From: Promethearchaeota archaeon
GTDB lineage: Archaea > Asgardarchaeota > Lokiarchaeia > Sigyniarchaeales > SOKP01
DNA: 64,000 bases
Direction: 5' to 3'
Assembly (NCBI GenBank): GCA_019057795.1
Contig: JAHLWS010000069.1
Span: forward strand, 46,835-110,834
The notes beneath the pieces are model-generated. The model was not told where the DNA came from. It searched no databases and saw only the letters and a program-made list of their open reading frames with translations. A program made the translations under genes and the position numbers. Positions 844 to 25,481 of this stretch are shown piece by piece (position 1 is the stretch's first letter; the number at the start of each line of letters is the position of its first letter).

Positions 844-2334
844 TCACGCTTTTTCTACACGAAATATATGGCTATTCCAACCCTCTAATTCGATATATAA
901 TCCATTTTCACGAAGATCTTTTCCTTTATAAATATACTCGTTCCTTGTAAGCAGATCTGTAAACTTCCAGTTAAATAGTCCAAAATCTATATCTTCTATT
1001 ATTAAATGCGCTTTGGAAGCAATTAAACTATAATTGACAACAATTAATAGTCGATCCTTATCTGTCCACCACTGATACGAAATAATATTATTGAAAGAGT
1101 TATCACTTGAACTGATAGGTTTAACTTTACATAAAGACCATTTTGCATTATCAAACTCTCTTCCGGGAATAATTTCCAACAAATTGTCATAGAATTCCAT
1201 CAGAGCTAAGTCATCTTCTTCTGTCGTCGCCCTTCCTAATTGAACAGGTAATTTTATTTCGTATCCTCGTGTTTGCCCTTCAAAAATCAATCGAGCGCCA
1301 GGTAGTGTTGATGTAATAACAACAGCAGCTTTTGAAGCTTCAGTTCCGAACACCGTTATAGCTCTTGGTTCATCGTGATTTTCAATAAAGCGGAGCAATT
1401 TTCTTTGGTAATCCAAATCTGCTTTAAGATGTTCGTTTACTCTCTGAGCATTATCATTAGCTAAGCGTTCGTATAGTTTCTTATCATAACAATAATCAAA
1501 TCCTTGCTGCATCAATTCCCATTCCATATCCCAATACACTTCAGCTATAAACTTAAAATCGGGGAATTCATTTTTTACAGCAACAATAATTTCTTCCCAA
1601 AATTCTTTTTCAAGAGCTGGACCTACTTTTACCTCCCATGTGCGGTTAAAAACGCTATTAGTCATTAACATTGCCATATCACATCTAACACCATCACATT
1701 GTTGGGCGATCGAAAGTAGCGTGTGAATGGCTTTTGAACGAGCTTCAGGCGAAAACGCATTGATTTGCACGGTGTCGGTCCATGCAGGAAAATTGGGATC
1801 GCGACCATGAGCATAAACAATATCTCCTAAAGAGAAAAAGTCGTATGGTTTAGCTATTAAATCATCTATAGTTCCTTTTATAAAAACATCTGATTTTTCA
1901 AGCGTCCATAGATGGTCTACTGAAACATGGTTGGGAACATAATCTAAAAGTAGCAATATTCCATGGTCAGCTAATTCTTTGCGGAAGAAATCTAAACCAT
2001 CTGAACCCCCAAGGTGAGAACTAACGTGATAATAATATACTGAATATGGCGAACCAATAACATCATCGGTATTAAAATAATGTAACGCCTTACGATATTC
2101 TTCTTGTAAACCTTCGTGGTTAATCGCAATTTCTCTTCCTATAGGACTTCTTTCCCATACTCCCATTAACCAAATTGCATCATAAGGAGTTAATTCTTGG
2201 TCAATTAATTCAACAGGTAATGTATCTAACTTAATTGAATGGCCATATATCTCAGATAAATTGTTTAACCATGGCCACGTGTTAATTTCGTAAATTTTAG
2301 GGTGTTTAGGCCATATAATCTTTTTTATTGACAT
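844..2334 (-). CDS. GH13 alpha-amylase family glycoside hydrolase
   Basis: GH13 motifs: DYVPNH, GVRCDMAM (nucleophile Asp), IAEVYW (acid/base Glu), ENHDE. Confidence 0.9.
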   Translation of the reverse strand: MSIKKIIWPKHPKIYEINTWPWLNNLSEIYGHSIKLDTLPVELIDQELTPYDAIWLMGVWERSPIGREIAINHEGLQEEYRKALHYFNTDDVIGSPYSVYYYHVSSHLGGSDGLDFFRKELADHGILLLLDYVPNHVSVDHLWTLEKSDVFIKGTIDDLIAKPYDFFSLGDIVYAHGRDPNFPAWTDTVQINAFSPEARSKAIHTLLSIAQQCDGVRCDMAMLMTNSVFNRTWEVKVGPALEKEFWEEIIVAVKNEFPDFKFIAEVYWDMEWELMQQGFDYCYDKKLYERLANDNAQRVNEHLKADLDYQRKLLRFIENHDEPRAITVFGTEASKAAVVITSTLPGARLIFEGQTRGYEIKLPVQLGRATTEEDDLALMEFYDNLLEIIPGREFDNAKWSLCKVKPISSSDNSFNNIISYQWWTDKDRLLIVVNYSLIASKAHLIIEDIDFGLFNWKFTDLLTRNEYIYKGKDLRENGLYIELEGWNSHIFRVEKA

Positions 2335-3191: not shown

Positions 3192-4550
3192 CTAATACAT
3201 ATTTTTCAATCTTTCCATAAAAGGTTCTACACTTTTTTTGACTCCGTTTACATTTTCGCCTATTTTTTTGAAATTAATAACTATTGATGGTATATTTAAT
3301 TCCGTTTTCATTTTATCCTTTAATGTATCGTATGTTTTTGATATTGAAGGGCACCCAAATACCTGGTTGAAGATTAAACCATCTATGTTCATTCTTTTTG
3401 CTGCTGCTAAGTAGGAATTCGTCATATTTTCTCTGTTGCATCCAATTCCTTTTGTTGATGCGTTCAATAGAAAACGAGAGTAATCTTCAATGGGGTCGGA
3501 ATTTTTTGATAAAGGGATTTCTTCCAATAAACCTAGTAAGTCCCAATCAGCATAAATTATCCTTCCACCCAATTTATAAATAATTTCGTGTACTTCTGGT
3601 TCCCACCCTTGGTACATTGGGGCAAATAACACCCTTGGCATGTGAGAAACATCCATTCCTATACCTTTTTTGATCCTCTCTCTCATTTCTTTAACTAATT
3701 GACTCATATTATTTAAGTATCTTTGAGCGTTAGAATTATAATCTTGAAATGTTATTGTTAGAAGCGCTAGAATTTCCGCAAAGGATGCAGGATTACAAGG
3801 ATAGAAATTTGAAGTACTGATCTCATAAAGGATTGTTTTATAAAATCGCTTTACCTGGTTTCCTATTCGGAATTGTTTTTGTAAGCTACTATCTGTGACA
3901 AAATTTCCTGTTATACCCTCTAAATCACTGATCCCCCTTTTTACACTGTTTATTATTTGTTCTAGTGCCTTATTTTCATTTTCTAGATTTTTAGGAGGAA
4001 CCTCAATCGTTATTTGATTAGGGACTGTTGTTTTTAACGATTCAGAAAACTTATTCCATTCACCACAACGCATAGCAAAGTTAAGATTAGCGTCTAAATT
4101 TTTGCCCTTTGATAAATGCATTCCATAAAGAGCGTTAATTCCATAACATAATTCAGAGGGAACGCCATTATTAACACCTAATTCGTACATTTCATTATAT
4201 TTACTATGAATCGAGGTAATAACATCTTCAAGAATTTTATCGACTATTTTTAATATATCAAATTGACGAGCGAAATCTAGAAATTTTGATGTTAAACTCC
4301 AACCTAATACACTAGTGGCGGAATTTAACATTGCTAAGTACTTATTAACTTCAAACGATTCCATTCGAATTGGAAAAACTGGAATCCCTCCAACGGCAAA
4401 AGCTAAATCTGGGAAACCTAAGGCAACTGAAATTAATTTTTTCTTTTCTTTAAACTTTTTCTTTTTTAGATACTCTCTACCTGTTAAAAAATTATAAGCC
4501 ATTTTAAGAACAGACGTGAAACTTACGACATCGTCAGCGTATATACTCGT
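3192..4550 (-). CDS. 2-hydroxyacyl-CoA dehydratase subunit (HgdA/FldB-like), paralog of 10441..11796
   Basis: Colinear with 10441..11796 and keeps the Fe-S Cys positions (LCYG, RCG, FGCP). The ORF-track ATG is at 4502, but homology extends 16 codons upstream to ACG at 4548-4550. Confidence 0.8.
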   Translation of the reverse strand, partial: TSIYADDVVSFTSVLKMAYNFLTGREYLKKKKFKEKKKLISVALGFPDLAFAVGGIPVFPIRMESFEVNKYLAMLNSATSVLGWSLTSKFLDFARQFDILKIVDKILEDVITSIHSKYNEMYELGVNNGVPSELCYGINALYGMHLSKGKNLDANLNFAMRCGEWNKFSESLKTTVPNQITIEVPPKNLENENKALEQIINSVKRGISDLEGITGNFVTDSSLQKQFRIGNQVKRFYKTILYEISTSNFYPCNPASFAEILALLTITFQDYNSNAQRYLNNMSQLVKEMRERIKKGIGMDVSHMPRVLFAPMYQGWEPEVHEIIYKLGGRIIYADWDLLGLLEEIPLSKNSDPIEDYSRFLLNASTKGIGCNRENMTNSYLAAAKRMNIDGLIFNQVFGCPSISKTYDTLKDKMKTELNIPSIVINFKKIGENVNGVKKSVEPFMERLKNMY

Positions 4551-4976: not shown

Positions 4977-5963
4977 ATGACTAAGGAAAAAATAAAAATT
5001 TGCGTACTTGAGAAAAAACGAGGAAATTTTTCAATACAAGAGAAATTTGCTAAAAACGAAAATATTATCGATACAACTAATCAAGAAGTAGAACATCATT
5101 TAAGTGCTTTAAATGAAGCGGGTTATGATGTAAAAATATTAAAATGGAATGACAATATAATTTATGATTTAAAAAGTCTTGACATTGATATCGTATTTAA
5201 TATATCCAGCATTGTTGAAACAGCTATTTTAGAAGAATTAGAGATACCTTATGTAGGGTCTGATGTTTTTGGATGCGTTATAGCAACCGATAAGGTTCTT
5301 ACTAAAGACTTGTGGTTTAAAAAAGGATTACCAACATCACCTTATATTTTAGCAAGATCAAAAGAGGATTGTGAAATTTTTAAGAAAAACAAGCCATTTG
5401 ATTATCCTTTATTTATAAAACCCTCTCAAGGGAGAGGAAGTTCTGGAATCGATGAATCCTCACTTATCTGTTCATATAACGAATTAATTAAAGGAGTTGA
5501 AAAAAGATTAAACACAATAAATCAACCTGTTCTTATTGAAAAATTTTTAAAAGGTAGGGAAATAACATGTGGAATTATTGGTAATGGAAATCAGATTAAA
5601 GCCTTACCTTTATTAGAAATAATACACAAGGAAAAGGAAAAATTCTTGACATTTAATAAAAAAGAGTTAGATGACGATCAATTCCAATGCCCTGCAAAAT
5701 TAACTCCGAAACAGTCTAAAGAATTACAGAAATTAGCTATTTCAGCATTTCAAGCGATAAATCTTAGAGATTATGGTCGTGTAGACATGATCTTATCAGA
5801 AGAAGGTCCTTTTTTATTAGAAATAAATTGTTTTGCAGGATTAATGTGTACACCAAAAGATAAACCTCATAGTTACATGGGCTTTATGGCAATTGCAGAA
5901 AACAAAAAAAGTAGTGAATTCTTAGATGAAATTATAAAAGAAGCATTAAAAAGAATTGGATAA
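4977..5963 (+). CDS. ATP-grasp ligase, D-alanine--D-alanine ligase family
   Basis: LEELEIPYVGSD, DKVLTK, PLFIKPSQGRGSSGI, LIEKFLKGREITCGI, RDYGRVD, LEINCFAG. Lacks the GGxSxE N-terminal motif of canonical Ddl. Confidence 0.85.
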   Translation: MTKEKIKICVLEKKRGNFSIQEKFAKNENIIDTTNQEVEHHLSALNEAGYDVKILKWNDNIIYDLKSLDIDIVFNISSIVETAILEELEIPYVGSDVFGCVIATDKVLTKDLWFKKGLPTSPYILARSKEDCEIFKKNKPFDYPLFIKPSQGRGSSGIDESSLICSYNELIKGVEKRLNTINQPVLIEKFLKGREITCGIIGNGNQIKALPLLEIIHKEKEKFLTFNKKELDDDQFQCPAKLTPKQSKELQKLAISAFQAINLRDYGRVDMILSEEGPFLLEINCFAGLMCTPKDKPHSYMGFMAIAENKKSSEFLDEIIKEALKRIG

Positions 5964-6005: not shown

Positions 6006-7091
6006 ATGCCAATACTTGAAATAAATTTGAGAAAAATTAGACATAACGCAAAATTATTAAAGAATCTTTTAACTCAGCGAAATGTATCTATTATTGGAAT
6101 TACAAAACTTGTCTTAGGAAACCCTACTATTGCAATGACGTTGGTTCAAGGAGGAATAGAGTATTTAGGAGATTCACGAATTAACAATATTATTAAAATG
6201 AAAAAAAATAATATTAGAGCTCAATTTGTTTTAATTCGTATTCCAAGCATTACTGAAATTCCTCTTGTTGTTAAATACGCAAATTATAGCCTAAATTCAG
6301 AATTAAAGACCATAAGAATGCTTTCAAATGAAGCCGTTAAACAAAAAAAGATACATAATATAATTCTAATGGTAGATATGGGAGATTTAAGAGAAGGAAT
6401 AAATATATTCAATATTGAATTTTTTGTCGAAGAGATTTTAAAACTAAAAAATATAAATTTAAGTGGAATTGGTACAAATTTCAAATGTTTTGGTGGTATC
6501 ATCCCGACAGATGAAAATATGAATGAATTTTCAAAATTAGTCTTTAGGATCAAGGATAAATTTGAATTGGAATTAGAATTTGTTTCAGGAGGAAATTCTG
6601 CAAATTTTAACTGGTTTAAATCGTGTAAAAACATTGGTGAAATAAATAATTTTAGAATTGGGGAAGCCATGTTTCTAGGAAAAGAAACGATAAATTATGA
6701 ACCAATTCCAAATCTATATACAGACGCTTTTAAGTTAATAACAGAGATTGTTGAGTTAAAACAAAGATCTGTAATCCCCAAAGGGATTATTGTATCAAAT
6801 GCATTTGGGGAACGTGTCCAAACTTACCATAAAAAAATTAACAACGGTAAAAAAAGCGATATAATTAGAACACAAGCACTTTTAAATATAGGTAGACAAG
6901 ATATTGCAGTAAAAGGATTAAATCCGAAAGAAAGTATTAATATTCTTGGAGCTTCAAGCGACTACTTAGTTGTAGATATAAGAGATAATCAATTTCAGAT
7001 TGGACAAAAATTGCATTTTGATTTAAATTATGAAGCTCTTTTAAGAGCAATGACTAGTCCCTATATCCATAAGAAATTTATCGATATTTAA
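6006..7091 (+). CDS. PLP-dependent alanine/ornithine racemase family protein (fold type III)
   Basis: IIGITK (PLP Lys), LGDSRI, NSE, MVDMGDLREG, SGGNSA, FRIGEA, GRQD, ILGASSD; resembles ornithine racemase-type proteins. Confidence 0.85.
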   Translation: MPILEINLRKIRHNAKLLKNLLTQRNVSIIGITKLVLGNPTIAMTLVQGGIEYLGDSRINNIIKMKKNNIRAQFVLIRIPSITEIPLVVKYANYSLNSELKTIRMLSNEAVKQKKIHNIILMVDMGDLREGINIFNIEFFVEEILKLKNINLSGIGTNFKCFGGIIPTDENMNEFSKLVFRIKDKFELELEFVSGGNSANFNWFKSCKNIGEINNFRIGEAMFLGKETINYEPIPNLYTDAFKLITEIVELKQRSVIPKGIIVSNAFGERVQTYHKKINNGKKSDIIRTQALLNIGRQDIAVKGLNPKESINILGASSDYLVVDIRDNQFQIGQKLHFDLNYEALLRAMTSPYIHKKFIDI

Positions 7092-7099
7092 ATTTACAT

Positions 7100-7165
7100 G
7101 GGTTTATGATTTTATTCTGAATGGTAACGAAACACATTTTAGAAGAAGAAAATGAAAATATGAAA
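7100..7165. repeat. second copies of the 17-bp (7100-7116) and 20-bp (7146-7165) direct repeats
   Basis: Exact matches to 4653-4669 and 4944-4963, in the same order. Confidence 0.85.
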
Positions 7166-7516
7166 TTTATTTTTATTACAGTAAGGATAATTTTTAGTTT
7201 ATTAAAAAAAGTTCTAAAAAACATCTACATAATTGTAGAATTAAAATTTGCCTCTTAATCTATATAAATGACGCAAAATTTTAAATGTAATAATTGATAT
7301 AATAAGATAGGAAGAATTTTGCATTGAAACTTAAAACGGTATTAATTATCTAAATATTAGAATATATTTTTGTATCCAATAAATTAGGGATATAATTAGA
7401 GCAACTGGTTATTCACTGTTATTATTCTATCGAATTTTAATAATCACTACTCTGCAATCCAGTAAGTTTCTTTAATGCTTATTTCAAATATTGTTTGAAG
7501 GGTGTTTTATTCAATA

Positions 7517-9256
7517 ATGATGACTAACTCTTATTTAGAGAAAAAAAAAAATAGAAGAATTTTAACAGCATGTATAGGACAATGCGTGCATGTAGCAGGT
7601 ACATATAATTTCATTCAAATTTCAAAACAGTTAGGTTATAATAATATATTTTTAGGACCTGCTACCCCTATTTCAATTGTTATCGATCAAATTAAAAAGT
7701 ATGACCCTAACATTGTAGGGCTAAGTTATCGTTTAACGGCAGACACTGTTAGACCTTTACTAAATGAATTTTTTAAAAATTTTATAAAATTAGAGAAAAA
7801 ACCAAAAAAATTATTTTTTGCTGGAACACCTGAAGTAGTTGAGATTGCAAGAAAATATGAAGGGTTCGATGAATATTTTGTTGGAGGGGAATCAAAATTT
7901 GAATTAATTTCTATCTTGAGAAATGAGAAAGTAAAATCAGAAAGTAAAACAGAAATCCCTATGGACATTATTTCTCGAATACAATGGAAGAAACCTTATC
8001 CTGTAATTAGAGCGCACTTTGGATTACCTAATTTCAATGAAACAATAGAAGGAATAAAAAAAATTGCTAAAGCTAAAGTCTTAGATGTTATTTCAATTGC
8101 GCCCGATCAAAATACGCAAGCAAATTATTTCCACCCTGAAAATCAAGATAAAGAATTATCTGGAGCGGGCGGGGTTCCTTTGCGCACTCAGCAAGATTTC
8201 GAAAAGCTCCATCAGGCAAGATTAACCGGAAACTATCCGATGTTAAGGGTATATGCTGGAACACGCGATTTCATTAAATTAGGAAAATTGTATCGAGATA
8301 CAATTCAAAATGCTTGGGCAGCAATTCCTATTTTTTGGTTTAATCAAATGGATAGTAGGGGGCCTTTAACTTTAAAAGAATCGATTAAACAGCATCTAAA
8401 CGCAATAAAGTGGCACGGAAAGCACAATATTCCCGTTGAAGTAAACGATCCACATCATTGGAGCCTTCGAGACGCTCCTGATGCTATAGCTGTTGCTGAT
8501 ATGTATTTATGTGGAATAATAGCCAAAAAATTAGGCGTCAAAAATTTTATAGCACAATATATGTTTAATACACCTCCATCAAGTTCACTTGATATGGACT
8601 TAGCAAAAATTCTCGCTAAAGATGAGTTACTTCAAACGCTAGCCAATGAGAACTTTACGATAATTAAGCAAGTTCGAACGGGAATAACAAGTTTCCCATT
8701 AGATTTGGATAAAGCAAAAGGACAGCTTGCTACAGCGACATTTGTTCAATTAGCTATTAGACCAGACATTGTTCATGTAGTTAGTTCTTCTGAAGCTAGT
8801 CATGCAGCTCGTCCAGAAAATGTAATAGAAAGTTGTAAAATAGTGGATCAAGTCATAGATAAAGTTTATTCCTGTAAAATTAATATTATAGATAAAAAAA
8901 TTGAGGAAAGGAAAGAAGAATTAATAAGACAAGCCAAATGGATAGTTAATTTAATACCTCATCTAACAAAAAATGAAGAAGAAACGATAAGTCCATACAC
9001 CAATTATGAAGTTTTAAGTCGACTCGTAAAATATGGTATATTTGATGCCCCACATTTAAAAAACAATAAATTTGCGTTGGGTAAAATTAAAACAAAAGTA
9101 ATTAACGGTGCTTGTTATTCGTGGAATGAATCTCAGCAAAAAATTTACGATGAAATTGAAAGAATAAAAGACATTATCTTTAATAGCCCATTTAAAAATT
9201 TTTCTGATTCATTACAACAAAAAGAAAAATCCATCACAAAGGTGATGGATGAATGA
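7517..9256 (+). CDS. cobalamin-binding domain fused to a glutamate-mutase-epsilon-like TIM barrel (single-chain B12 mutase-like protein)
   Basis: N-terminal His-on B12 motif (CVHVAG...FLG...VGLSYRL...FAG). The C-terminal region has segments resembling GlmE (GTRD, AKKLGVKN, SFPLDLDKAKGQLATAT, SEA, GIFDAP). ORF-track start is GTG at 7502; ATG at 7517. Confidence 0.75.
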   Translation: MMTNSYLEKKKNRRILTACIGQCVHVAGTYNFIQISKQLGYNNIFLGPATPISIVIDQIKKYDPNIVGLSYRLTADTVRPLLNEFFKNFIKLEKKPKKLFFAGTPEVVEIARKYEGFDEYFVGGESKFELISILRNEKVKSESKTEIPMDIISRIQWKKPYPVIRAHFGLPNFNETIEGIKKIAKAKVLDVISIAPDQNTQANYFHPENQDKELSGAGGVPLRTQQDFEKLHQARLTGNYPMLRVYAGTRDFIKLGKLYRDTIQNAWAAIPIFWFNQMDSRGPLTLKESIKQHLNAIKWHGKHNIPVEVNDPHHWSLRDAPDAIAVADMYLCGIIAKKLGVKNFIAQYMFNTPPSSSLDMDLAKILAKDELLQTLANENFTIIKQVRTGITSFPLDLDKAKGQLATATFVQLAIRPDIVHVVSSSEASHAARPENVIESCKIVDQVIDKVYSCKINIIDKKIEERKEELIRQAKWIVNLIPHLTKNEEETISPYTNYEVLSRLVKYGIFDAPHLKNNKFALGKIKTKVINGACYSWNESQQKIYDEIERIKDIIFNSPFKNFSDSLQQKEKSITKVMDE

Positions 9257-10359
9257 GGTTCTGCGTTATTGGAGCAGGAAATGGTGGCCGAGCGTTTGCG
9301 GCATATTTATCATCAGAAGGATATCCTGTAAATCTATATAATCGCTCATATACCAGAATTTATGACATCAAAAAGAAAGGAGGAATAAAAGCAAAAGGGA
9401 AGTTAAAAGGCTTTTTCCCAATTGATCTGATTACACAAAATCTAAATTTGGCAGTTAAGAATGTAGATGTTATTTTAATAGTAACTCCTGCTTCAGCACA
9501 TAAAAGTATTGCAAAGAACATTGCACATTTTTTAACAAACGATCAGATAATATTGTTGAATCCAGGTAGAATTTTTGGAGCTGTAGAGTTTAGAAGTATA
9601 ATAGAAAAGGAAAGAGGGAATCTCCCTATTTTTATTGCTGAAACCCAAACATTACTTTTTACATCAAGACAATTGAAAAAAAATGAAGTTCAAATTCTTA
9701 CAATTAAGGATTCTGTTAGTTTTTCTGCTTTTCCAGAGAAGCATACGTTTTTCATTAGTGATACATTGAGAGATGTTTTTCCCCAAATGAATCCTATTGA
9801 TAATTATCTGCAAGTTACATTAAATAACATGGGGATGTTATTGCATCCAACTCTCTCATTATTGAATGCTAGTGCTATGGATTATGGAAGAAAGTTCAAT
9901 TTTTATGCACAAGGGGCATCTACACATACTTGTGAAATTCTTGAGGCTCTTCAAATGGAATTCAGAAAGATTTTTGAAAAGTTAAATTTAAAGCAAATAA
10001 ATTTTTGTGAATGGGTGGAGAAATCTTATGGATTTAAAGCAAACAATATCTATAATGCTATTCAAAAAATAGAGGCATATAAAAATATTGTTGCTCCAAA
10101 AGAATTAATAACTAGATATTTCACTGAGGATGTTCCAACTGGACTTGTACCTATGGCGTCATTAGGAGAATTCTTAGAAATTTCTACACCAATAATTGAT
10201 TCTATAATAAATTTATCTTCGATTTTATGTGGAATTGATTTTAGAAAAGAGGGAAGAAGCATTATGAACTTAAATTTAGCTAGCCATATAACTAAACAAA
10301 TGAAAGGAGAAGATATGTTGGGAATACTAGAAAGTCAAAAAACACAAATCGATGCTTAA
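9253..10359 (+). CDS. NAD/NADP octopine/nopaline (opine) dehydrogenase family protein
   Basis: Rossmann VIGAGNGG, LNPG, AETQT, LNNMGMLLHP, RYFTEDVPTGLVP. ATGA overlap with the upstream B12 gene. Confidence 0.9.
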   Translation: MRFCVIGAGNGGRAFAAYLSSEGYPVNLYNRSYTRIYDIKKKGGIKAKGKLKGFFPIDLITQNLNLAVKNVDVILIVTPASAHKSIAKNIAHFLTNDQIILLNPGRIFGAVEFRSIIEKERGNLPIFIAETQTLLFTSRQLKKNEVQILTIKDSVSFSAFPEKHTFFISDTLRDVFPQMNPIDNYLQVTLNNMGMLLHPTLSLLNASAMDYGRKFNFYAQGASTHTCEILEALQMEFRKIFEKLNLKQINFCEWVEKSYGFKANNIYNAIQKIEAYKNIVAPKELITRYFTEDVPTGLVPMASLGEFLEISTPIIDSIINLSSILCGIDFRKEGRSIMNLNLASHITKQMKGEDMLGILESQKTQIDA

Positions 10360-10440: not shown

Positions 10441-11796
10441 TTACTTAAACATTTCCATGAATGCACCGAGCCTTGTCTTCATTTGTTCGATGTTCTCTCC
10501 AATTTTATTAAAAGTAATTGCAGTTGTTGGTATCTCAAGCTCGCGTCTTACTTTCTCTCTCAGCATTGTATAACAATTTGAAATAGAATGACATCCAAAC
10601 AATTGAAAAAATATAAGACCATCGGCATTTAATTTTTTTGCCACTCTCAAATATGAGTCAGTTAACGTGTCGTTATCACACCCAATCCCTGATACTGTTG
10701 CATTTAAAAGAAATCGAGCGTATTCTTCAACAGGATTTAAATGATTAGCCACGGGAATTTCCTCTGAGAATTTTATTACTTCCCAGTCAGCATAAATCGC
10801 TCTCCCGCCTAGTTCATATATAATATCGTGGGTTTTTGGTTCCCATCCTCCGAATATTGGCGTTACAAAAATACGCGGCATTTTAGACACATCCATTCCA
10901 ATTCCCTTTCTTATTCTTTCCCGCATTTCGTCTACGAGTGAAATTAAATTATCCCTATATCGTATCGAATTAGAATTATAGTCTTGAAATGTAAGGCTTA
11001 ATAACGCCAGAATTTCACTAAATGTTGCTGGATTACACGGATAAAAATCAGAAGCACTAATATCGTAGATTATTGTTTTATAAGATTTTTTTACTTGATT
11101 ACTAATTTTAAAATGCTCTCTCAATTGATTATCCGTTATTGTGTTGCCAGTTAAATTCTCCAATTCTCTTATGGCGTTCGATACATTATCAGTTATAATT
11201 TCCAAAGCATTTCCAATATTTCTGGGAGGAATATCAACCCATATTTGCTTTGGGTCTTGATTGATTATTTTTAAGGATTCCATATATTTATTATACGCGC
11301 TACATCGAATTGTAACGTTGAGACATGCGTCTAAATTACGACCTTTGGAAATATGCGCACCAACTAAACTTTTCAACCCGTAACAGAAGTCACTTGAAAT
11401 TCCATTCTCAATTCCAAGATCATACATTTCGTTGTATTTTTTGTTAATCGTGTCAATTACATCCTCAATAATTCCGTCAACAATTTTACTGATTTCAGAT
11501 ATTCCAAGGTTCTTAACAAAACTTAAGAAGCTAGAAACATTTTTCCAGCCAAAAATACTAGACGCGGAGCCTAAGTACGCGAGGTATTTACTAATTTCAA
11601 AAGTGTGCATCCTTATCGGAAACACTGGTACAGCACCTGCCGCGAAAGCTAGATCTGAAAATGCTAAGGATACTCCAACTAGCTTTTTTTTCTCTCGGAA
11701 CTTTTTCCTTTTTAGATACTCTCTGCCTGTTAAAAGATTATAAGCCATTTTTAATACAGAACTAAAAGTTATTATTTCCTCAGCAATTAAACTCAT
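10441..11796 (-). CDS. 2-hydroxyacyl-CoA dehydratase subunit (HgdA/FldB-like)
   Basis: FCYG, RCS and FGCHS Cys pattern, C-terminal QMKTRLGAFMEM; translationally coupled to the upstream subunit. Confidence 0.8.
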   Translation of the reverse strand: MSLIAEEIITFSSVLKMAYNLLTGREYLKRKKFREKKKLVGVSLAFSDLAFAAGAVPVFPIRMHTFEISKYLAYLGSASSIFGWKNVSSFLSFVKNLGISEISKIVDGIIEDVIDTINKKYNEMYDLGIENGISSDFCYGLKSLVGAHISKGRNLDACLNVTIRCSAYNKYMESLKIINQDPKQIWVDIPPRNIGNALEIITDNVSNAIRELENLTGNTITDNQLREHFKISNQVKKSYKTIIYDISASDFYPCNPATFSEILALLSLTFQDYNSNSIRYRDNLISLVDEMRERIRKGIGMDVSKMPRIFVTPIFGGWEPKTHDIIYELGGRAIYADWEVIKFSEEIPVANHLNPVEEYARFLLNATVSGIGCDNDTLTDSYLRVAKKLNADGLIFFQLFGCHSISNCYTMLREKVRRELEIPTTAITFNKIGENIEQMKTRLGAFMEMFK

Positions 11797-12932
11797 TTCA
11801 TCATCTCCAAATACGCTTCTATTCTTGTTGAGAGCTGCCCTCGATTAGCTCGAGAATAGTCTCGCTCTAAATTCAATACTTGTATTCCTTTTTCTTGTAA
11901 CTCATTTTTCAAGAAAGAAGACATTAACGATATGTGGTCGCAAAATTTAATAATATGATTGAAAACGCCTAATTTTTTACCAGTTTTTTTTGTATAGTTC
12001 TTAGAATAATTATCAATCAAAGAAACTTTTTGTTGCAAGAAGTTAGGTACTGAATGGTCTCCACACGTATTATTTTTAAATCTCAGCACCAATAAATCTA
12101 AAGGATTTTTGTTTGAATTTATCGAGTCATCATCTATAACTTGTGAATAATAGTGATTTCCAATCCATGTATCGAAATAAACAATATTTCCCCCTCCTTC
12201 TTCGATTAAATCAATTAGGTTATCATTAATGAAGATAGAACATCCTGTAAATAAAATATCTTTAGATAAACCAAGGTTTTGAGGTGGATTGTTTTTTACT
12301 TCTTCAATGTACTTTTCTAAATCAGGTAGGAATGTTGGACCATATAATATTGCTTTTTGAATTATATTTAATTTTTCTGAGCCCAAAATCTCTAAATCAT
12401 TAACTTGCGATATTTTTTTTTTAAAATCATTATACTTCTTAATACTCTCAAATAATTTTTCGTCAGAAATTTTTTTACCTATAATATCTTCAAGCTTCTC
12501 CTTTAAATTTTGTAGCTCTATCTTGAAATATTTTAAACTACTTTCATTAGTCATATATGGGACATAAAAATTTAAACGAGAGATATTGAAATATTTAGTT
12601 ATTATTTCTGAAGCACAAATATCTGATACGCAGTGGTTTGAAACAATAAAATAATCCACCAAATCTAAAAATCTGTAGTTATTTGGTTTAGTAGAAAATA
12701 ATCCAATACATGATTGAGCAAATGCACATGTAGATGGAGGTAAAAAATCGTGACTAGCTTCCATTAACTCGTCATCCCCTCCAAACATCATCCTTAAAGG
12801 AAAGAAACCCGCTGCATCTATCAACTCTTCGGGGATATTGTCGTGAGCTAAAAAAGCAACGATTTTAACACCTTCTTGCTTTTTTTCTTTAAGAAATAAC
12901 GAAAACTCTGGGAGAAGAATGGGATCGGTCAT
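11793..12932 (-). CDS. 2-hydroxyacyl-CoA dehydratase subunit (HgdB/FldC-like)
   Basis: IPEELIDAAGFFP, TCAFAQS, HCVSD, KFCD, GQLSTRIEAYLEM. Confidence 0.88.
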   Translation of the reverse strand: MTDPILLPEFSLFLKEKKQEGVKIVAFLAHDNIPEELIDAAGFFPLRMMFGGDDELMEASHDFLPPSTCAFAQSCIGLFSTKPNNYRFLDLVDYFIVSNHCVSDICASEIITKYFNISRLNFYVPYMTNESSLKYFKIELQNLKEKLEDIIGKKISDEKLFESIKKYNDFKKKISQVNDLEILGSEKLNIIQKAILYGPTFLPDLEKYIEEVKNNPPQNLGLSKDILFTGCSIFINDNLIDLIEEGGGNIVYFDTWIGNHYYSQVIDDDSINSNKNPLDLLVLRFKNNTCGDHSVPNFLQQKVSLIDNYSKNYTKKTGKKLGVFNHIIKFCDHISLMSSFLKNELQEKGIQVLNLERDYSRANRGQLSTRIEAYLEMMK

Positions 12933-13046
12933 AATATTAGCTTGAGTAGTATGAAATTATCTATCTGAAAAGACTTATTTCCTTAAAAAAGTTTCCCGAT
13001 TTAAAATATAGATAAAAATATTAAAATTAGCTGAAATAAAATTAAT

Positions 13047-13826
13047 CTAATTAGAATTGTTTTCTTGAGCTATTAAAGCGGCACCAATAGCTCCCGTGAG
13101 TTGAGGAAATTCGGGTGTTTCGATGCCATATCCAAGTTCATCTTCTAAAAATTTTTTTACAGCAGGGTTTTTGGCGACTCCACCACAGAAAATAAGTTTA
13201 GGTCCTACTCCAATACGTTTTGCCATTCCGGCAACTCTTCTCGCAATTGATTTATGTATGCCGCTTGCGATCTCTTCTTTAGAAGCCCCTCTCGCGAATA
13301 AACTTATTACTTCGCTTTCTGCGAAAACTGTACATGTTGAACTTATTGAAGCCGATTTGTTAGATCGTAAAGCTAAATCTCCAAATTGATCAATAGGAAC
13401 TTCCAACGCGTGAGCCATGACTTCCAAAAACCGGCCCGTTCCTGCTGCGCATTTGTCATTCATTTGAAAGTCAATAACATTTCCAGTTTTTGCAGACATT
13501 ACAATTGCTTTACTATCTTGACCCCCAATATCTATTACGGAATTAGCATCTGGAAAGAAATATTGCACCCCCCTAGCGTGAGCTGTAATTTCAGTCACTC
13601 GATCGTCTGCAAAGTCTACTGTATTTCTTCCGTAACCGGTGCTCATAATGTGTACATCTTCCTTCTTCAAACTGTGTTTATTTAATATTTCATTAAATAA
13701 ATTATGACCAATTCTTTTGAAATCATATGTGGATCTTTCTGTTCGGTGATCAATTAACTTCCTATCGTTAATAAGCACTATCTTTGTTGCCAAAGAACCA
13801 ATATCTATACCAATAAAATTCTTCAA
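13047..13826 (-). CDS. acyl-CoA dehydratase activase (HgdC/FldI-type ASKHA [4Fe-4S] ATPase)
   Basis: GIDIGS, TGYGR, TEITAHARG, IDIGGQDSK, MNDKCAAGTGRFLE, SSTCTVFAESE, GGVAKN. Confidence 0.95.
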   Translation of the reverse strand: MKNFIGIDIGSLATKIVLINDRKLIDHRTERSTYDFKRIGHNLFNEILNKHSLKKEDVHIMSTGYGRNTVDFADDRVTEITAHARGVQYFFPDANSVIDIGGQDSKAIVMSAKTGNVIDFQMNDKCAAGTGRFLEVMAHALEVPIDQFGDLALRSNKSASISSTCTVFAESEVISLFARGASKEEIASGIHKSIARRVAGMAKRIGVGPKLIFCGGVAKNPAVKKFLEDELGYGIETPEFPQLTGAIGAALIAQENNSN

Positions 13827-15819: not shown

Positions 15820-16191
15820 GTGAATACTATGAACGGAAAAATGAAATTTTATTCATTGTTAGGATTTTTCCAATTAGTGCTTATATTAATTGTGTTTTTT
15901 AGTGTAGATGGAATTATCACTATGGTTGCAGCACAAACAGAGAGTTTTGATTACTATAATTCTCCAACAGCGGCGATTTTAGCGATTTCAGCAGCAATCT
16001 CCCTTTCAGCAGCAGTATTAGGAAGTGCAATCGCTTTAAAAACAGTAGGTACAGCAGCAATATCATCTTTATCCGAAAGAGAAGAAAGTTTTTTTAAAGC
16101 ATTCTTAGTTGTTGCATTGTGTGAGGCTTTAGCCGTATATGGTTTAATTGTTGCCATCCTCCTCTGGACAAAAATCCCCACGCCAGGATAA
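15820..16191 (+). CDS. atpK: A/V-type ATP synthase subunit K (c, proteolipid)
   Basis: Hydrophobic hairpin with ALCEALAVYGLIVAILL (ion-binding Glu) plus an extra N-terminal hydrophobic segment. Confidence 0.92.
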   Translation: MNTMNGKMKFYSLLGFFQLVLILIVFFSVDGIITMVAAQTESFDYYNSPTAAILAISAAISLSAAVLGSAIALKTVGTAAISSLSEREESFFKAFLVVALCEALAVYGLIVAILLWTKIPTPG

Positions 16192-16231
16192 TCTTGATTT
16201 ACATTTAAAATCGTTAAGAAGGTGTTTTTTT

Positions 16232-17293
16232 ACGAGTGAAATTATTCCGTCTTATGCTTATACATATATTAAAATCGATTATTTAAAACTATTAATAATT
16301 GATGATGACACTTTACTAAAACTTAAAAGAATCTACGATATTGATGACTTCATGGAATCTATTAGACCTTACTATCCTAATTTAGATTTCAAAGAAAATA
16401 CTATTGAAGATATTGAAGTAGCTCTTAATAATAATTATATTAAGCTAATTGGTAAAATTTTACATTATTCCCCCCAAAACATGAGAATATTCTTAAGAAA
16501 TTATCTCATGAAATTTGAAATACAAAATCTCAAACAAATAATCATCAGTTTAATTTTAGGAATTAATCTAGAAGAAAAAAGAAAATACATTAATTTTTTA
16601 GTTGAAGAATATTTAGATAACACGGAATTCATTGAAGAATTGCTTAAATTTACTTCTTTAGACGAAATACAATTATTTCTTAAAAGAACTAAATACAATA
16701 TAGCTATTAGAGAAGGGATTCTTTACTTTAAGAAAAATAAAGAAATTTTTATTCTGGAAGCTTTTTTAGATCAATTATATTATAAGCAACTTAATGCTCA
16801 ACTGGAACGTTTAAATAAAAAAGAGAAAACAATGATATCGTTGTTTGTGAAATATAAAACTGAAATTTATAATATAAATGTGATTTATAGGGGAATAAAA
16901 AATAAAATTGAAGGAAAATTATTATCTCAATTTCTTGTAAATAATTATTTATTCCTAAATGAAAGTAAATTAGAACAATTGTTAAATCTTGATAATGTTG
17001 ATGAATTTATATCAATTATTAAAGAATATTTGAAGAATATTAAGGAAACAAAACCATTTTTTATCAAGCTAAAAATTAATCAAAAACACTTAATTAGGTC
17101 AATTGAACAATTTTATATAACTTATTATTTTAAGAAATTTAAGATTAAAATTGACGATATTGATTTTTTCACCATTTACAAAATTTTAGAAATACTTATA
17201 AAAAAAGGGGGAGAAATCCGATTTATTATATTACCCCAGGTAATTAAGATCCTTCACTATAAGTTTAAAGCGTTAAAAACGCAGAAATTTTAA
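16232..17293 (+). CDS. atpC: A/V-type ATP synthase subunit C (d)
   Basis: Operon position and size; N-terminal YAY, EIQNLK, LDQLYY, EIYNINVIYRG. Probable start is ACG at 16232 after GGTG; the ORF-track TTG at 16148 lies inside atpK. Confidence 0.8.
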   Translation, partial: TSEIIPSYAYTYIKIDYLKLLIIDDDTLLKLKRIYDIDDFMESIRPYYPNLDFKENTIEDIEVALNNNYIKLIGKILHYSPQNMRIFLRNYLMKFEIQNLKQIIISLILGINLEEKRKYINFLVEEYLDNTEFIEELLKFTSLDEIQLFLKRTKYNIAIREGILYFKKNKEIFILEAFLDQLYYKQLNAQLERLNKKEKTMISLFVKYKTEIYNINVIYRGIKNKIEGKLLSQFLVNNYLFLNESKLEQLLNLDNVDEFISIIKEYLKNIKETKPFFIKLKINQKHLIRSIEQFYITYYFKKFKIKIDDIDFFTIYKILEILIKKGGEIRFIILPQVIKILHYKFKALKTQKF

Positions 17294-17353
17294 AGTTAAT
17301 TATGAAATTATGAAATAAAATATTTAATAGATAATAATATGTGAGTTGTAATA

Positions 17354-17665
17354 ATGCCAATTTTTAAATGGGTTGAAGAAATCGAAAATATTTATGAAAA
17401 TTTGATTGAAAACGCTAAAAAAGAAAGTTTAGAAGACATTGAGAAATTAAAAGCTTCATTAGAAAAAAATATGGAAAAAAAACTTCATAATAATCAAGAA
17501 ATTATTAATTCTGCCTTAAAAACACTTTCAAAAGAAATTGATGAAAAATCATTAAAATTCGGAGAGTCAATATCAAAATTATATAGCAAAATAGAAAAAA
17601 ATTATTATGAAAATAAGGAAGGATTAATGAATTTAATATTTGAGAAATTAGGATTTGATTTTTAA
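17354..17665 (+). CDS. atpH: A/V-type ATP synthase subunit H (G), peripheral stalk
   Basis: 103-aa charged coiled coil (IENAKKES) within the ATPase operon; TAATG overlap with atpF. Confidence 0.7.
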   Translation: MPIFKWVEEIENIYENLIENAKKESLEDIEKLKASLEKNMEKKLHNNQEIINSALKTLSKEIDEKSLKFGESISKLYSKIEKNYYENKEGLMNLIFEKLGFDF

Positions 17666-17982
17666 TGCCTGATAAAAAAATACATGTATTAGGTTACGAC
17701 GAAATAGTTTCATTGTTTGGTCTTTTAGGTATTGAAGGAACGATAATTAAACATAATGAAGATTTTTTAAAAATTTTTAAAAATTTAATAAAAAAATCTT
17801 CTGTTGCTATGATAATTATATACATGGATTTATCAGACGAAAATCTCGAATTTCTAACAGATTTTAAAATAAATAATAGGACACCATTTGTATATTTATT
17901 ACCAAATATTTTTCAACAAGATATAAAGAATCAAGATAAGGTATTAAACAAAATTTACGAATTGATAGAAGAAATTATATAA
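17665..17982 (+). CDS. atpF: A/V-type ATP synthase subunit F
   Basis: KIHVLGYDEIVSLFGLLGIEG...P.VYLLP, 105 aa. Confidence 0.88.
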   Translation: MPDKKIHVLGYDEIVSLFGLLGIEGTIIKHNEDFLKIFKNLIKKSSVAMIIIYMDLSDENLEFLTDFKINNRTPFVYLLPNIFQQDIKNQDKVLNKIYELIEEII

Positions 17983-18016
17983 AAAAAGATGATCGGCCAT
18001 TAGTGAAGGAAATGAC

Positions 18017-18721
18017 ATGAAAGAGAGATTTGGAAAACTAAGTTTGTATTTAATAAATCAAGCTGAAAATGAGATAAAGAAGATCAATCAACAATCCCTC
18101 TTTCAAATGGCAGAAGTTAGAAAAAAAGCTAGGGAAAGAACTTCAGAAAGCTCTTTAAAATTGAAAGCGCATTTTAACGAAACATACAATAAACTATTAA
18201 ATAATTCTCTATCTTCTTATCTCTTGAAAATTAAAGAAGAAGTATTAAAATCTAAAAACAAATTAATGTTGGAACTTATTTCAGATTTAACAGACTTAAT
18301 AAAAGACAAAATAAAAAATAATTATTCGAGCTACATTAGTTTTTTACTAAAAAATCTTGAAAATATCAAGGATTTTGTGGATAAACCCCCGGAGATTATC
18401 ATTCACTTAAATTCAATAGATTTTAAATATTTCAGCAATAATATGGGAAAGATTGAAAGTATATTAAGAAATAAAATAAGTTTAGTCAAGTCAGAAGAAG
18501 AATTTACGGGAGGTTTTAAGTGTGTAATTATGGCCGGACATTTATCTTACGATTATACGATTGAAAATCAATTAAAGAAGATCACACCGATTATAGAAAT
18601 TGAGTTTTCAAAGATTTTTTCTGACTCCGAGACTGATATTAGAGCTCTAGAAAATAATTATATTGAATTTATCCAAAATCAAAAATTAGCTGTAAACGAA
18701 TATTTAAAGAAATATGAATGA
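18017..18721 (+). CDS. atpE: A/V-type ATP synthase subunit E
   Basis: N-terminal coiled coil and C-terminal GGF...YDYTIENQL motif; lies immediately before atpA. Confidence 0.85.
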   Translation: MKERFGKLSLYLINQAENEIKKINQQSLFQMAEVRKKARERTSESSLKLKAHFNETYNKLLNNSLSSYLLKIKEEVLKSKNKLMLELISDLTDLIKDKIKNNYSSYISFLLKNLENIKDFVDKPPEIIIHLNSIDFKYFSNNMGKIESILRNKISLVKSEEEFTGGFKCVIMAGHLSYDYTIENQLKKITPIIEIEFSKIFSDSETDIRALENNYIEFIQNQKLAVNEYLKKYE

Positions 18722-20555
18722 AATTAAAGAAAAAATTAAGTCCGGATATATCTCATCTATAAACGGATCCTTAATAGAAATAAAAGGCTTAGAAAACTAT
18801 GTACGGCTAAATGATTTAATTAAGGAGTCTAAACATAAAATTTTAGGCGAAGTAATCCAAATTTATTCAGATCATGTTACTGCTCAATGTTTTGAAAATA
18901 CTTCTAATTTAAAATTAAATGAAGAAGTTATTAGTTTACAAGAACCCTTATCAATGGAATTAGGTCCTGGTTTATTAGGACATATCTTTGATGGTATTCA
19001 AAGACCATTGGAAGCAACTTTTTTGAGTTCTAAAGGCGAAGGATTTTTAAAGAGAGGAGTTGATTTACCTGCTTTATCAAGAGCGAAAAATTGGCATTTT
19101 AAACCAGTAAAAAAGATAAATGATTATGTAAGTACGGGGTATGTAGTTGGAACCGTTCAGGAAACAGAACTCATTGAACATAAGATTATGATTCCATTAG
19201 GAATTTCCGGAAAAATAACCTATATTGCAGAAGAAGGAGAATATACTGTTAGTGACGAAATTTACCGCTTGAAAAATGGTTCCAAAGAAAAATCGTTTAA
19301 TATGATTCAAAAATGGCCAATCACCAAAAATAGGCCTTATAAAGAGCGAGGCTTTCCTAATGAACCACTAATTACAGGAATGAGGGTAATCGATTTACTA
19401 TTTCCAATAGTAAAGGGAGGTACAGTTGCCGTTCCTGGAGGATTTGGAACGGGCAAAACGGTAATCCAACAATCTCTAGCAAAATGGTGTAACGCAGATA
19501 TAATTATTTTTGTTGGATGTGGAGAACGAGGAAACGAGATTGCAGACGTCTTAAAACAGTTTTCTGAAATAAAAGATCCAAAAAGTGGACGCCCGTTATT
19601 AGAACGAATTGTTATCCTAGCTAATACATCTAATATGCCCGTATCTGCGCGAGAAGCAAGTATATTTTCTGGAGTTACAATTGGTGAATATTTTAGAGAT
19701 ATGGGGTATGATGTAGCAGTTTTAGCAGACAGTACTTCAAGATGGGCAGAATCATTACGGGAAATATCAGGGTTATTAGAAGAAATGCCGGCCGAAGAAG
19801 GATATCCGGCTTATTTACCCTCTAAAATTTCTAGCTTTTATGAAAGAGCTGGTGTTGTTAAGATATTGGGAGAAAAAGATTCTGGAAAAGAGAAATTCGG
19901 GTCTATAACAATTATTGGTTCAGTATCACCGCCTTCAGGAGATTTCAGTGAGCCCGTTACTTCAACTACAAAGCGTTTTGTTCAGGCTTTTTGGGCATTA
20001 GATGCGAGTTTAGCATATTCTAAACATTATCCTGCGATTAATTGGTTAAATTCATATTCAAAATATCCTGAATTCATCTCAGATTGGTGGTTTGAAAGAG
20101 ATATTTATTGGCCTGAGATAGATATAGATTGGTACGAGTGTAGAAAACAAATAAATAGCATCCTATCTCAAGAAAACGAACTAAAAAATGTCACCCAATT
20201 AGTTGGTGAAGAAAACTTACCAGAAAATCAACAATTTATCCTATTCATTTCACGATTGATTAGAAATGGTTTATTAATTCAAAATGCCTTTGATTCTATA
20301 GATTGTTTTACAGACGTTAAAAAATTAATTGGAATAGTAAAACTCATTCTATTACTATTTAAAGAAGGCAATCAACTCTTAAAGCAAGGTTTTCTAATTG
20401 AAGATATCAAAGAACTCGATGTTGTAAATGATATTCTTAGGACTTGCCGTACTGTTCCTAATAATAATTTTGTTCAAATAGAGAAATTAAGAAAGAAAAT
20501 GCTAAACGAAATAGAGTCATTAAAATTAACATATGGTATTTTTAGGAAAAAATGA
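18714..20555 (+). CDS. atpA: A/V-type ATP synthase catalytic subunit A
   Basis: [15 protein letters not shown] (Walker A), [36 protein letters not shown]. Confidence 0.97.
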
Positions 20556-21943
20556 GCGTAATTTATAGAAAAATAAAACAAATTGTTGGACCTTTAATAT
20601 TTCTAGATAATAGACACGATGTACAATATGGTGAAATCGTTAAAATTCATTCTGATGATGGAAAAGAACGTATAGGCCAAGTCGTAAAAATGGATGAAAA
20701 GATTATAACAATTGAAGTATTTGAAAATACAGCTGGACTTTCTTCAGAAAATTCTACAATTACTTTTACTGAAGATTCTTTTAAGATAAAAATTTCAAGT
20801 GATATGATTGGAAGAGTTTTTAACTCCTTAGGAAAACCTATTGATATTAATACGAAACAAGTGTTAGATTCAGACATTTTTACCGAAATTGAACGGGATA
20901 TAAACGGTTTACCAATTAATCCTTTTGCAAGAGAATATCCAACGCAAGTCATCCAAACGGGAATATCGGTAATAGACGGTCTTTTTACCTTAATAAGAGG
21001 ACAAAAACTCCCAATATTTAGTGGTCAAGGATTACCCCATAATCTATTAGCTGCTCAAATTGTTACTCAAGCAAAAGTTTTGACAGAAGAACCATTCTTA
21101 ATAATTTTTTGTGGAATTGGAATTATCCAAGATGAAGCAATTTTTTTTATGAATCGTTTTAAAGAAAGTGGAAACATACAAAATATCATTTCTTTTATCA
21201 ATTTTGCTGACGATCCAATAATGGAAAGACTAATAATTCCGCGCGTAGCATTAACTACTGCGGAATATTTTGCATTTGAAAAAGATATGCATGTTCTTGT
21301 TGTTTTAATAGACATGACGAATTATGCTGAAGCTTTAAGAGAACTAAGCTCCGCCAAAGAAGAGATTCCTAGCAGAAAGGGGTATCCGGGTTATTTATAC
21401 ACTGATTTCGCATCGATCTATGAAAGAACTGGTAAAATTAAAGGTAAAAAAGGGACAATAACCCAATTACCGATTTTGACGATGCCTAACGACGACATTT
21501 CTCACCCAATTCCGGATACAACAGGGTACATAACTGAAGGTCAGTTAGTTCTAAATCGTAACTTAGAAAAAAAAGGAATATATCCCCCTTTTGAAGTCTT
21601 AGCGTCTATATCACGACTTATGAAAGACTCAATCGGTAAAGATACTACTAGGGAAGACCATGCTGATGTTAACTCTCAACTATTAGCATCGTATTCAGCT
21701 GCCCTTGAAGTTAGAGATCTTATATCGATTGTGGGGGAAGATGGATTAAACTTAAATCAAAAATCGTTATTAAGATTTGGTAACTTTTTCGAACAAAATT
21801 TTTTAAATCAAGGGTACACAGAGGAAAGGGATTTTTCAACGACTCTCAATATTGCATGGAAAGCTTTATCTAATTTACCAAAAAATCAATTATTTAGAAT
21901 ACATGACGATTTTATTGATAAGTATTACATTGAAGAGGTGTAA
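20552..21943 (+). CDS. atpB: A/V-type ATP synthase subunit B
   Basis: [50 protein letters not shown]. Confidence 0.97.
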
Positions 21944-22588
21944 GTATCAATTAGTTTTAGAGAGTTTAAGCCCACAAAAACAAATTTAATGAGTCTACAG
22001 AAAAGGTTAACTTTTGCTGTTAAAGGCGAAAATTTTCTAAAATTTAAATTAGAACAAATAATATTTGAAATCAAAAAAAATTGGGATAATTATTTAAAAC
22101 AACGTGAAATCTTTTTAGAATTATTCAAAGAAACTATGATTAAACTTAATCAAACATATAAAGAAATGGGTAAACGAGAATTTAATTTAATTAGCAAATT
22201 AAGTAAAATCCAATATAACCCAATGATTTCTATAAATTATATAAAGAAGATTGGAACATTAGTGCCAATAATAGATTACAAACTGATACGGGAGGAATCG
22301 CTTCCAGCTTACTCTTTTGAAAATACATCTCATTATCTTGATGATTTGATTATTCTTTTAATAAAGTTTTTTGAAAGCCTTATAATTTTTTCACAGTCTG
22401 AAGATCTATTATTGAAACTCTCCCTAACTTTTAAAAAAATAAATCGTAGGATAAATGGTCTAAAGAATGTAATAATTCCTGAACTACAAATAGACATTAA
22501 AAAAATTAAAGCTATATTAGAAGAAATTGAAAGAGAGAATTATGTTCGGTTAAAAAATACAAAAGATCTTATTACAAAAAATGTTTAA
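21944..22588 (+). CDS. atpD: A/V-type ATP synthase subunit D
   Basis: INRRINGLKNVIIP, LEEIERENYVRLK. The conserved N-terminal KPTKTNL lies upstream of the ORF-track ATG at 21989, so the true start is at about 21944-21950. Confidence 0.88.
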   Translation, partial: VSISFREFKPTKTNLMSLQKRLTFAVKGENFLKFKLEQIIFEIKKNWDNYLKQREIFLELFKETMIKLNQTYKEMGKREFNLISKLSKIQYNPMISINYIKKIGTLVPIIDYKLIREESLPAYSFENTSHYLDDLIILLIKFFESLIIFSQSEDLLLKLSLTFKKINRRINGLKNVIIPELQIDIKKIKAILEEIERENYVRLKNTKDLITKNV

Positions 22589-22605
22589 GTGAGGAATGAA
22601 AAAAA

Positions 22606-24894: not shown

Positions 24895-24914
24895 AGTAGG
24901 TTTATTGTAAAAAT

Positions 24915-25439: not shown

Positions 25440-25481
25440 TAAAAAACATAATGTTAACTTACATGGTAGGATTAGTAAAAA

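Follow-up and report, generated by a model that had tools for sequence, protein, structure and literature searches.

A single-chain B12-binding protein with a glutamate-mutase-like barrel is encoded next to an opine dehydrogenase in Asgard archaea

The locus

We analysed a stretch of 64,000 nucleotides of contig JAHLWS010000069.1 from a Promethearchaeota archaeon (called the window in what follows), in which an earlier note, made from the letters alone, had singled out one open reading frame as a natural fusion of the two glutamate mutase subunits GlmS and GlmE. The frame is real: positions 7517-9256 are open, and they encode a B12-binding domain with the motif CxHxxG fused to a domain of about 430 residues, as described in the note. 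The gene that follows, which the note had not considered, encodes an opine dehydrogenase, and the near-universal coupling of the two genes is the most informative feature of the system. The features on which the analysis rests are the following.

7517-9256, + strand: single-chain B12-binding and GlmE-like protein of 579 residues, P0001 (Pfam, Foldseek, hhalign, VIA-align); alternative GTG start at 7502
7556-7921, + strand: N-terminal Rossmann-type B12-binding domain, about residues 14-135 (sub-threshold PF02310, match to PDB entry 4jgi, beta-alpha repeats in the model)
7583-7600, + strand: cobalt-ligand loop C23-V-H25-V-A-G28, CxHxxG for DxHxxG (sequence and homologue alignment)
7952-9172, + strand: GlmE-like TIM barrel and C-terminal subdomain, residues 146-552, including Q201, Y246, A268 and E426 (VIA-align, hhalign)
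9253-10359, + strand: opine dehydrogenase of 368 residues, of the N-(1-D-carboxyethyl)-L-norvaline dehydrogenase (CENDH) type (PF02317, 133 bits); its start overlaps the stop of the preceding gene by 4 nt

The list of open frames gives the first gene as 7502-9256 (+) with a GTG start, whereas the ATG at 7517 yields the protein of 579 residues. The ATG is favoured, because a near-identical relative found in an RNA library carries an uncompensated 1-nt deletion at 7503. Motifs referred to below lie at 7583-7600 (CVHVAG), 8249-8272 (VYAGTRDF) and 8783-8797 (SSSEA). Both genes are represented in metatranscriptome libraries from two studies, by contigs with 90-99% identity to the window; one contig of 435 nt reaches across the junction between the genes. 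Such libraries may contain DNA, and this is taken as weak support for expression; the contigs leave 7108-7291 uncovered, and neither the gaps nor the differences in depth carry an interpretation. An Rfam scan of the window gave no match.

Similarity of the C-terminal domain to GlmE

The structure that AlphaFold predicted with 24 homologues (mean predicted local distance difference test, pLDDT, 72.4; predicted template modelling score 0.69) had as its best PDB match the E chain of glutamate mutase (1cb7_B, Foldseek E-value 4.4e-14). With VIA-align, residues 146-552 of the model superpose on residues 43-439 of 1cb7_B with a Z score of 28.3 and a root-mean-square deviation of 3.3 Å over 370 residues. 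The runners-up were lysine 5,6-aminomutase (26.6), ornithine 4,5-aminomutase (24.7) and methylmalonyl-CoA mutases (17-19), so that the next-best structural matches after GlmE are all adenosylcobalamin (AdoCbl) isomerases, and generic barrels, including the pterin-binding DHPS, were found at about 14 by the same program.

At the level of sequence the signal is fainter. The Pfam profile PF06368 (Met_asp_mut_E) matches residues 320-485 with 30.5 bits for a cut-off of 26.6, a match that spans only positions 183-347 of the 441 in the profile, and the NCBIfam glutamate-mutase equivalog TIGR01503 scores 21.2 bits against a cut-off of 390.1. Searches of PDB sequences with the protein alone, or with a shallow profile of the family (A1), returned matches for the B12-binding domain and none for the barrel. 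Aligned to single GlmE and GlmS sequences, A1 gave hhalign probabilities of 0.3% and 1.1%, and was used as a colinear guide only. When a profile of 31 diverse family members (A2) was compared with one of 15 true GlmE homologues seeded by the GlmE of the E. coli O157 Sakai operon (A3), hhalign gave a probability of 78% and an E-value of 1.8e-5 over 297 columns, extended to 383 columns in a permissive run. The profile comparisons pair GTRD of the family with GTPD of GlmE, AKKLGVKNF with ALEQGVKSI, SFPLDLDKAKG with GFPEDESKAF, SEA with HEA, and GIFDAP with GVLDVP. We concluded that the similarity to GlmE exceeds chance, on the evidence of PF06368, hhalign, Foldseek and VIA-align. The colinear segments that the note had set against GlmE are all found in the sequence and are paired with GlmE segments by the profiles, and its assignment of the domain of about 430 residues holds, since AlphaFold, Foldseek and VIA-align show a GlmE-like barrel followed by the GlmE C-terminal subdomain.

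The closest known system is the glutamate mutase GlmE/GlmS (MutE/MutS) of Clostridium cochlearium (PDB 1CB7 and 6H9E), together with ECs_0762/0764 of E. coli O157. Shared with GlmE are the TIM barrel with its C-terminal subdomain, the colinear motifs GT.D, GVK, FP.D..KA,.EA and G..D.P, and an equivalent of Glu330; shared with GlmS/GlmE more generally are a Rossmann domain predicted to bind B12 in the His-on mode and, in some members of the family, a fused homologue of GlmL. Unlike GlmE/GlmS, the protein is one chain with its B12 domain at the N-terminus and CxHxxG in the ligand loop, Arg100, Arg149 and Glu171 are replaced, and identity is 17%. The 2-methyleneglutarate mutase of Eubacterium barkeri, a carbon-skeleton mutase that uses AdoCbl on a C5 dicarboxylate, is likewise a single chain, but its B12 domain is C-terminal, at the opposite end (this enzyme was compared by description only).

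The B12-binding domain

PF02310 (B12-binding) matches residues 14-76 with 19.8 bits, below its cut-off, and the B12-binding protein of PDB entry 4jgi is matched with an E-value of 1.4e-4 when the single sequence is used and 3.1e-7 with the profile. C23, H25 and G28 of the ligand loop are invariant in the alignment of the 24 Asgard homologues. Among 31 representatives of the wider family, the loop reads CxHxxG in 16 and the canonical DxHxxG in 14, the latter form being kept in a remoter bacterial clade, and the His is absent in one remote member, P0154. In GlmS, mutation of the corresponding Asp reportedly impairs catalysis severely; the exchange of this Asp for Cys amounts to a natural experiment on the tuning of the lower ligand.

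Residues 8-85, which include the His loop and the helix that follows it, resemble 4jgi, MttC and the cobalamin module of MetH. The domain differs from these corrinoid domains by its Cys in place of Asp, its fusion to a mutase-type barrel, the lack of methyltransferase modules and the lack of a helical cap: with E-values up to 0.01, Pfam gives PF02310 and PF06368 and no B12-binding_2 cap, and the Rossmann fold begins at residue 14. Judging from the sequences, this resemblance probably explains the name 'methionine synthase' under which PGAP and NCBI annotation lists homologues, including most of the named Asgard ones. With hhalign, comparing a shallow family profile with a single GlmS sequence, the domain was not detectably closer to GlmS. 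The term GlmS-GlmE fusion used in the note is thus right for the architecture, but as a statement of ancestry it is not proven, the B12 domain being nearer to methyltransferase-type corrinoid domains.

Residues of the substrate pocket

In GlmE of C. cochlearium, we take glutamate to be bound by R66, R100, R149 and E171, with Y177 and Y181, and the ribose of the adenosyl group to be held by K326 and E330. All these residues are invariant in the 15 true GlmE sequences of A3, with the numbering shifted by one. Their counterparts in the family are the following.

GlmE R149: Y246, invariant in the family (hhalign, three alignments)
GlmE R100: Q201, nearly invariant in the family (hhalign)
GlmE E171: A268, with A, G, C, Q or H across the family (hhalign)
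GlmE E330: E426, aligned with E329 of E. coli GlmE, nearly invariant and within the conserved SEA motif (hhalign)
GlmE R66: H167 in one alignment and a gap in another, a placement that is not settled

The replacement of the glutamate-binding Arg and Glu residues announced in the note is thus borne out at three positions, R100 to Q201, R149 to Y246 and E171 to A268. The barrel nevertheless keeps a polar set of its own, invariant or nearly so in the family (R165, H167, D190, D279, R281, E308, N310, R318, D322, Q347, R387 and H420), and for this reason we regard the pocket as remodelled and not decayed. By its defining residues and by its context, as far as these can be read from sequence, the protein is not a glutamate mutase. 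The substrate is probably not free glutamate, as different conserved polar residues have taken the place of the arginine claw and Glu171.

A conserved opine dehydrogenase partner

The adjoining gene encodes a protein that matches CENDH of Arthrobacter sp. 1C (PDB 1BG6) over 342 residues with an E-value of 2e-76. The protein has the N-terminal Rossmann domain and the helical Octopine_DH domain, and the catalytic residues are kept: H198, and the R and D of an RYFTED motif, correspond to His202, Arg292 and Asp297 of CENDH. The dehydrogenase would couple an amino acid with a 2-oxo acid by reduction, at the expense of NAD(P)H, or catalyse the reverse reaction; we know of no B12-dependent partner described for CENDH. 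The dehydrogenase gene is single-copy in the genome.

Coordinate tables were compared for the genomes of the window's phylum that contain a strong match to the mutase-like protein (about 115 of 301). In about 109 of these 115 Asgard genomes the two are immediate neighbours on one strand; each of the other six matches is either fragmentary or located at the end of a contig. The mutase-like gene comes first in families f1, f2, f15 and f18 and second in f7, f9, f14 and f24, so that the adjacency has outlasted rearrangement. Outside the sample from this phylum, the dehydrogenase adjoins the mutase-like gene at loci L026 (bacterial, with a GlmL-fused protein), L028, L029, L043, L044 and L045, and lies three genes away at L025; L027 is the sole examined locus without it. 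When open reading frames were clustered over 19 loci, the mutase-like protein and the dehydrogenase formed the only clusters common to all.

Other neighbours were considered and set aside. Genes for TFIIB and a GHMP kinase are conserved nearby through synteny, and were rejected as functional partners, as were the HGD-D genes, which flank the pair here and at L002 but not elsewhere. An AsnC/Lrp-type regulator and a DUF2061 gene stand beside the pair at the related loci L001 (10960-11382) and L002 (6954-7376). On a bacterial metagenome contig (L028, 2768-10720), the pair lies beside a zinc-starvation set with cobW GTPases, ZnuA/ZinT and paralogues of L33 and S14; known opine-type metallophores are zinc-regulated, and this neighbourhood may be a lead or a coincidence. 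On a Bacteroidota metagenome contig (L025, 7809-15000), a remote DxHxxG member is found inside a polysaccharide biosynthesis cluster, next to two ATP-grasp genes, an aldo-keto reductase, a PGA_cap gene, the opine dehydrogenase and a DegT aminotransferase, a context which hints that the bacterial product decorates a surface glycan.

Distribution of the family

A word-index search returned more than 3,693 matches, the top 120 being 67-96% identical to the query and, where named, all from Asgard archaea. An exhaustive search of clusters formed at 50% identity gave 643 representatives with an E-value of at most 1e-3, 132 of them at most 1e-30. Look-alike clusters in the ESM Atlas come from Bacillota, Chloroflexota and Bacteroidota, none with a functional name, and searches of the literature returned neither a description of the family nor any connection of B12 with opine dehydrogenases. 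Distribution is patchy within the window's genus (15 of 27 genomes match, two of these weakly). In one genome of this genus the mutase-dehydrogenase pair occurs twice, in full each time, at a distance of about 9 kb on the same contig (G104:C23, 3151-5963 and 13904-16680).

Fusions were found in several members. In three bacterial proteins, P0142, P0147 and P0148, the C-terminal part is a PF13941 domain of the GlmL type. P0142 has the CxHxxG loop and is 31% identical to the query over all its 579 residues, and its tail is 29% identical to GlmL of E. coli O157 (E-value 8e-37). GlmL is a putative reactivase of glutamate mutase, and to our knowledge GlmL-type proteins occur only as companions of AdoCbl enzymes; these fusions are therefore the strongest indirect evidence for AdoCbl chemistry in the family. 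In another member, P0124, the fusion partner is an ATP-grasp domain.

The genome of the window encodes three mutases of the methylmalonyl-CoA type and the adenosyltransferase CobA, and AdoCbl is therefore made and used in this organism.

Proposed function and alternatives

We consider it likely that the protein is a new AdoCbl radical isomerase which works with the opine dehydrogenase. That the protein uses AdoCbl, isomerises its substrate through radicals and takes part in opine chemistry is inferred from the predicted fold, the Glu330 equivalent, the GlmL fusions, the coupling of the genes and the AdoCbl metabolism of the genome. To judge from its sequence, the enzyme very probably works like glutamate mutase, with AdoCbl bound in the His-on mode and a radical 1,2-shift in a GlmE-type barrel, and its substrate is probably tied to opine chemistry. 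It would be a single-chain, base-off/His-on cobalamin enzyme of the GlmE superfamily, most likely with adenosylcobalamin as cofactor. Homolysis of the Co-C bond would produce a 5'-deoxyadenosyl radical, which would abstract a hydrogen from the substrate, and the 1,2-rearrangement would take place inside the barrel. The two gene products would form one pathway of two steps, where the mutase either acts by rearrangement on the N-(carboxyalkyl) amino acid formed or split by the dehydrogenase, or else supplies or consumes an amino-acid substrate of the dehydrogenase.

The first of these options, an 'opine mutase' in which an N-(carboxyalkyl) amino acid undergoes an AdoCbl-dependent radical rearrangement as part of an undescribed pathway with the dehydrogenase, is put forward tentatively. 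An example would be the shift of the N-substituted glycyl group of an opine of the N-alkyl-glutamate type; the N-substituent would then find space beside the small residue that stands where GlmE has Glu171. In some lineages ATP-grasp ligases would go on to use the product for compounds of the cell surface or for peptides.

Several points weigh against the proposal of an isomerase acting with the dehydrogenase. The model is of moderate quality, and its active-site loops have a pLDDT below 50. Residues were mapped at an identity of about 17%, and two alignments place Arg66 differently. Over residues 8-85 the best sequence matches are B12 domains of the methyltransferase type, 4jgi, MttC and MetH (the last with E-values of 0.03-0.5 with the profile), and the Cys in place of the Asp that tunes the His ligand could make for a different chemistry. 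The genome, 100% complete by markers, has no PF13941 (GlmL), so that the absence of an adjacent reactivase reported in the note extends to the whole genome, and it has no adenosyltransferase of the PduO type. The form of the cofactor and the reaction are deduced from sequence, predicted structure and gene context, and that the opine itself should be the substrate of the mutase is to us a doubtful point.

One alternative is a divergent but ordinary glutamate mutase in fused form, converting glutamate to 3-methylaspartate. GlmE is indeed the closest fold and the only catalytic-domain match in Pfam, and Asgard archaea ferment amino acids. However, Arg100, Arg149 and Glu171 have become Gln, Tyr and Ala, the TIGR01503 score is 21 bits where 390 are required, and the conserved partner is an opine dehydrogenase and no enzyme of the methylaspartate pathway. 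In contrast with the glutamate-mutase operon of E. coli O157, no methylaspartase (PF07476, MAAL_C) and no GlmL were found in the genome, which also holds no second PF06368 protein or canonical GlmE; we regard this alternative as very unlikely. The public name 'methionine synthase' would make the protein a corrinoid (methylcobalamin) methyltransferase or methyl-carrier, in keeping with the matches of residues 8-85 and with the presence of about ten small corrinoid proteins in the genome. The note itself had named a match to a methyltransferase or pterin-binding barrel as what would refute its reading; among the barrels listed, Z is 28.3 for GlmE, 25-27 for the aminomutases and 18-19 for methylmalonyl-CoA mutases, against about 14 for those of the DHPS/pterin type. 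Since, in addition, Pfam detects no cap, the ribose-binding Glu is retained, members with GlmL-type fusions exist and no methyltransferase gene is conserved nearby at the 19 loci, a methyltransferase seems quite unlikely.

A further alternative is another class of AdoCbl radical enzyme, such as a pyridoxal phosphate (PLP)-dependent aminomutase or an eliminase, feeding the dehydrogenase as in ornithine or lysine fermentation. Lysine 5,6-aminomutase (1XRS, 8T0V) and ornithine 4,5-aminomutase (3KP1) have the AdoCbl barrel and come close to GlmE in the structural comparison (Z 24-27). In their pathways too an NAD(P) dehydrogenase acts after the mutase, and with a racemase of the Orr type encoded upstream, the order recalls the clostridial Orr/OraSE/Ord set. 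Yet the lists of invariant residues contain no lysine of the Rossmann B12 domain able to hold PLP, the subunit layout is another one, the racemase is outside the conserved module, and the partner belongs to a different dehydrogenase family, that of opine and not diamino-acid dehydrogenases; we hold this possibility to be rather unlikely. A non-catalytic B12-binding protein, be it a sensor, a carrier or a decayed enzyme, could account for the change of Asp to Cys in the ligand loop and for the remote member P0154 without the His. It is highly improbable, as the Asgard homologues hold about 70% identity with many invariant polar residues in the barrel, the gene is translationally coupled to that of an enzyme with intact catalytic residues, and it is found in RNA libraries.

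The family is large, strongly conserved and mis-annotated; as it has the hallmarks of the AdoCbl isomerases but an active site of its own and a constant enzymatic partner, it probably hides a new B12 reaction. Known adenosylcobalamin isomerases form a small set that grows slowly, and an opine mutase, if true, would be a new class of AdoCbl reaction, widespread in Asgard archaea and anaerobic bacteria. The work would also correct the name 'methionine synthase' and add a B12-dependent step to models of amino-acid metabolism in Asgard archaea. As only two genes are conserved, reconstitution in vitro should be easy.

Ligase, racemase and other genes of the window

Two genes upstream of the pair may be accessory to it.

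4977-5963, + strand: Ddl-like ATP-grasp ligase of 328 residues (profile matches), a possible accessory partner
6006-7091, + strand: PLP-dependent racemase of the ornithine-racemase (Orr) type, 361 residues (NF040742, 370 bits for a cut-off of 480)

In the window they occupy the place of the regulator and DUF2061 genes of L001 and L002. In five of five other Asgard genomes the two are again adjacent, there on contigs other than that of the mutase-like gene; they form a module of their own, and were rejected as core members for Asgard archaea. Close orthologues of the ligase were found in 11 further genomes, all 11 of which also have the mutase-like gene with its dehydrogenase, but these genomes are related and hence are not independent observations. 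A ligase homologue adjoins the mutase-like gene at L029, and other ATP-grasp genes flank it at L025. This co-occurrence and adjacency, with the ATP-grasp fusion in P0124, suggests that the ligase provides an optional downstream ligation step and is not part of the core. A D-amino-acid dipeptide or amide is a possible product of the ligase-racemase module.

Downstream of the pair and convergent to it lie two adjacent HGD-D genes and a BcrAD/BadFG-type activator ATPase (10441-13826, - strand), and a third, lone HGD-D gene is found upstream (3192-4502, - strand). By sequence, this set would be of the 2-hydroxyacyl-CoA dehydratase or double-cubane reductase type, all its members scoring far below the NCBIfam equivalog cut-offs. 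Further downstream is an ordinary A/V-type ATP synthase operon (AC39, A, B and I subunits; 16148-27293, + strand). Two genes of the alpha-amylase family, one of them encoding 1135 residues, were found at 844-2334 (- strand), which is syntenic with L002, and at 37016-40423 (+ strand).

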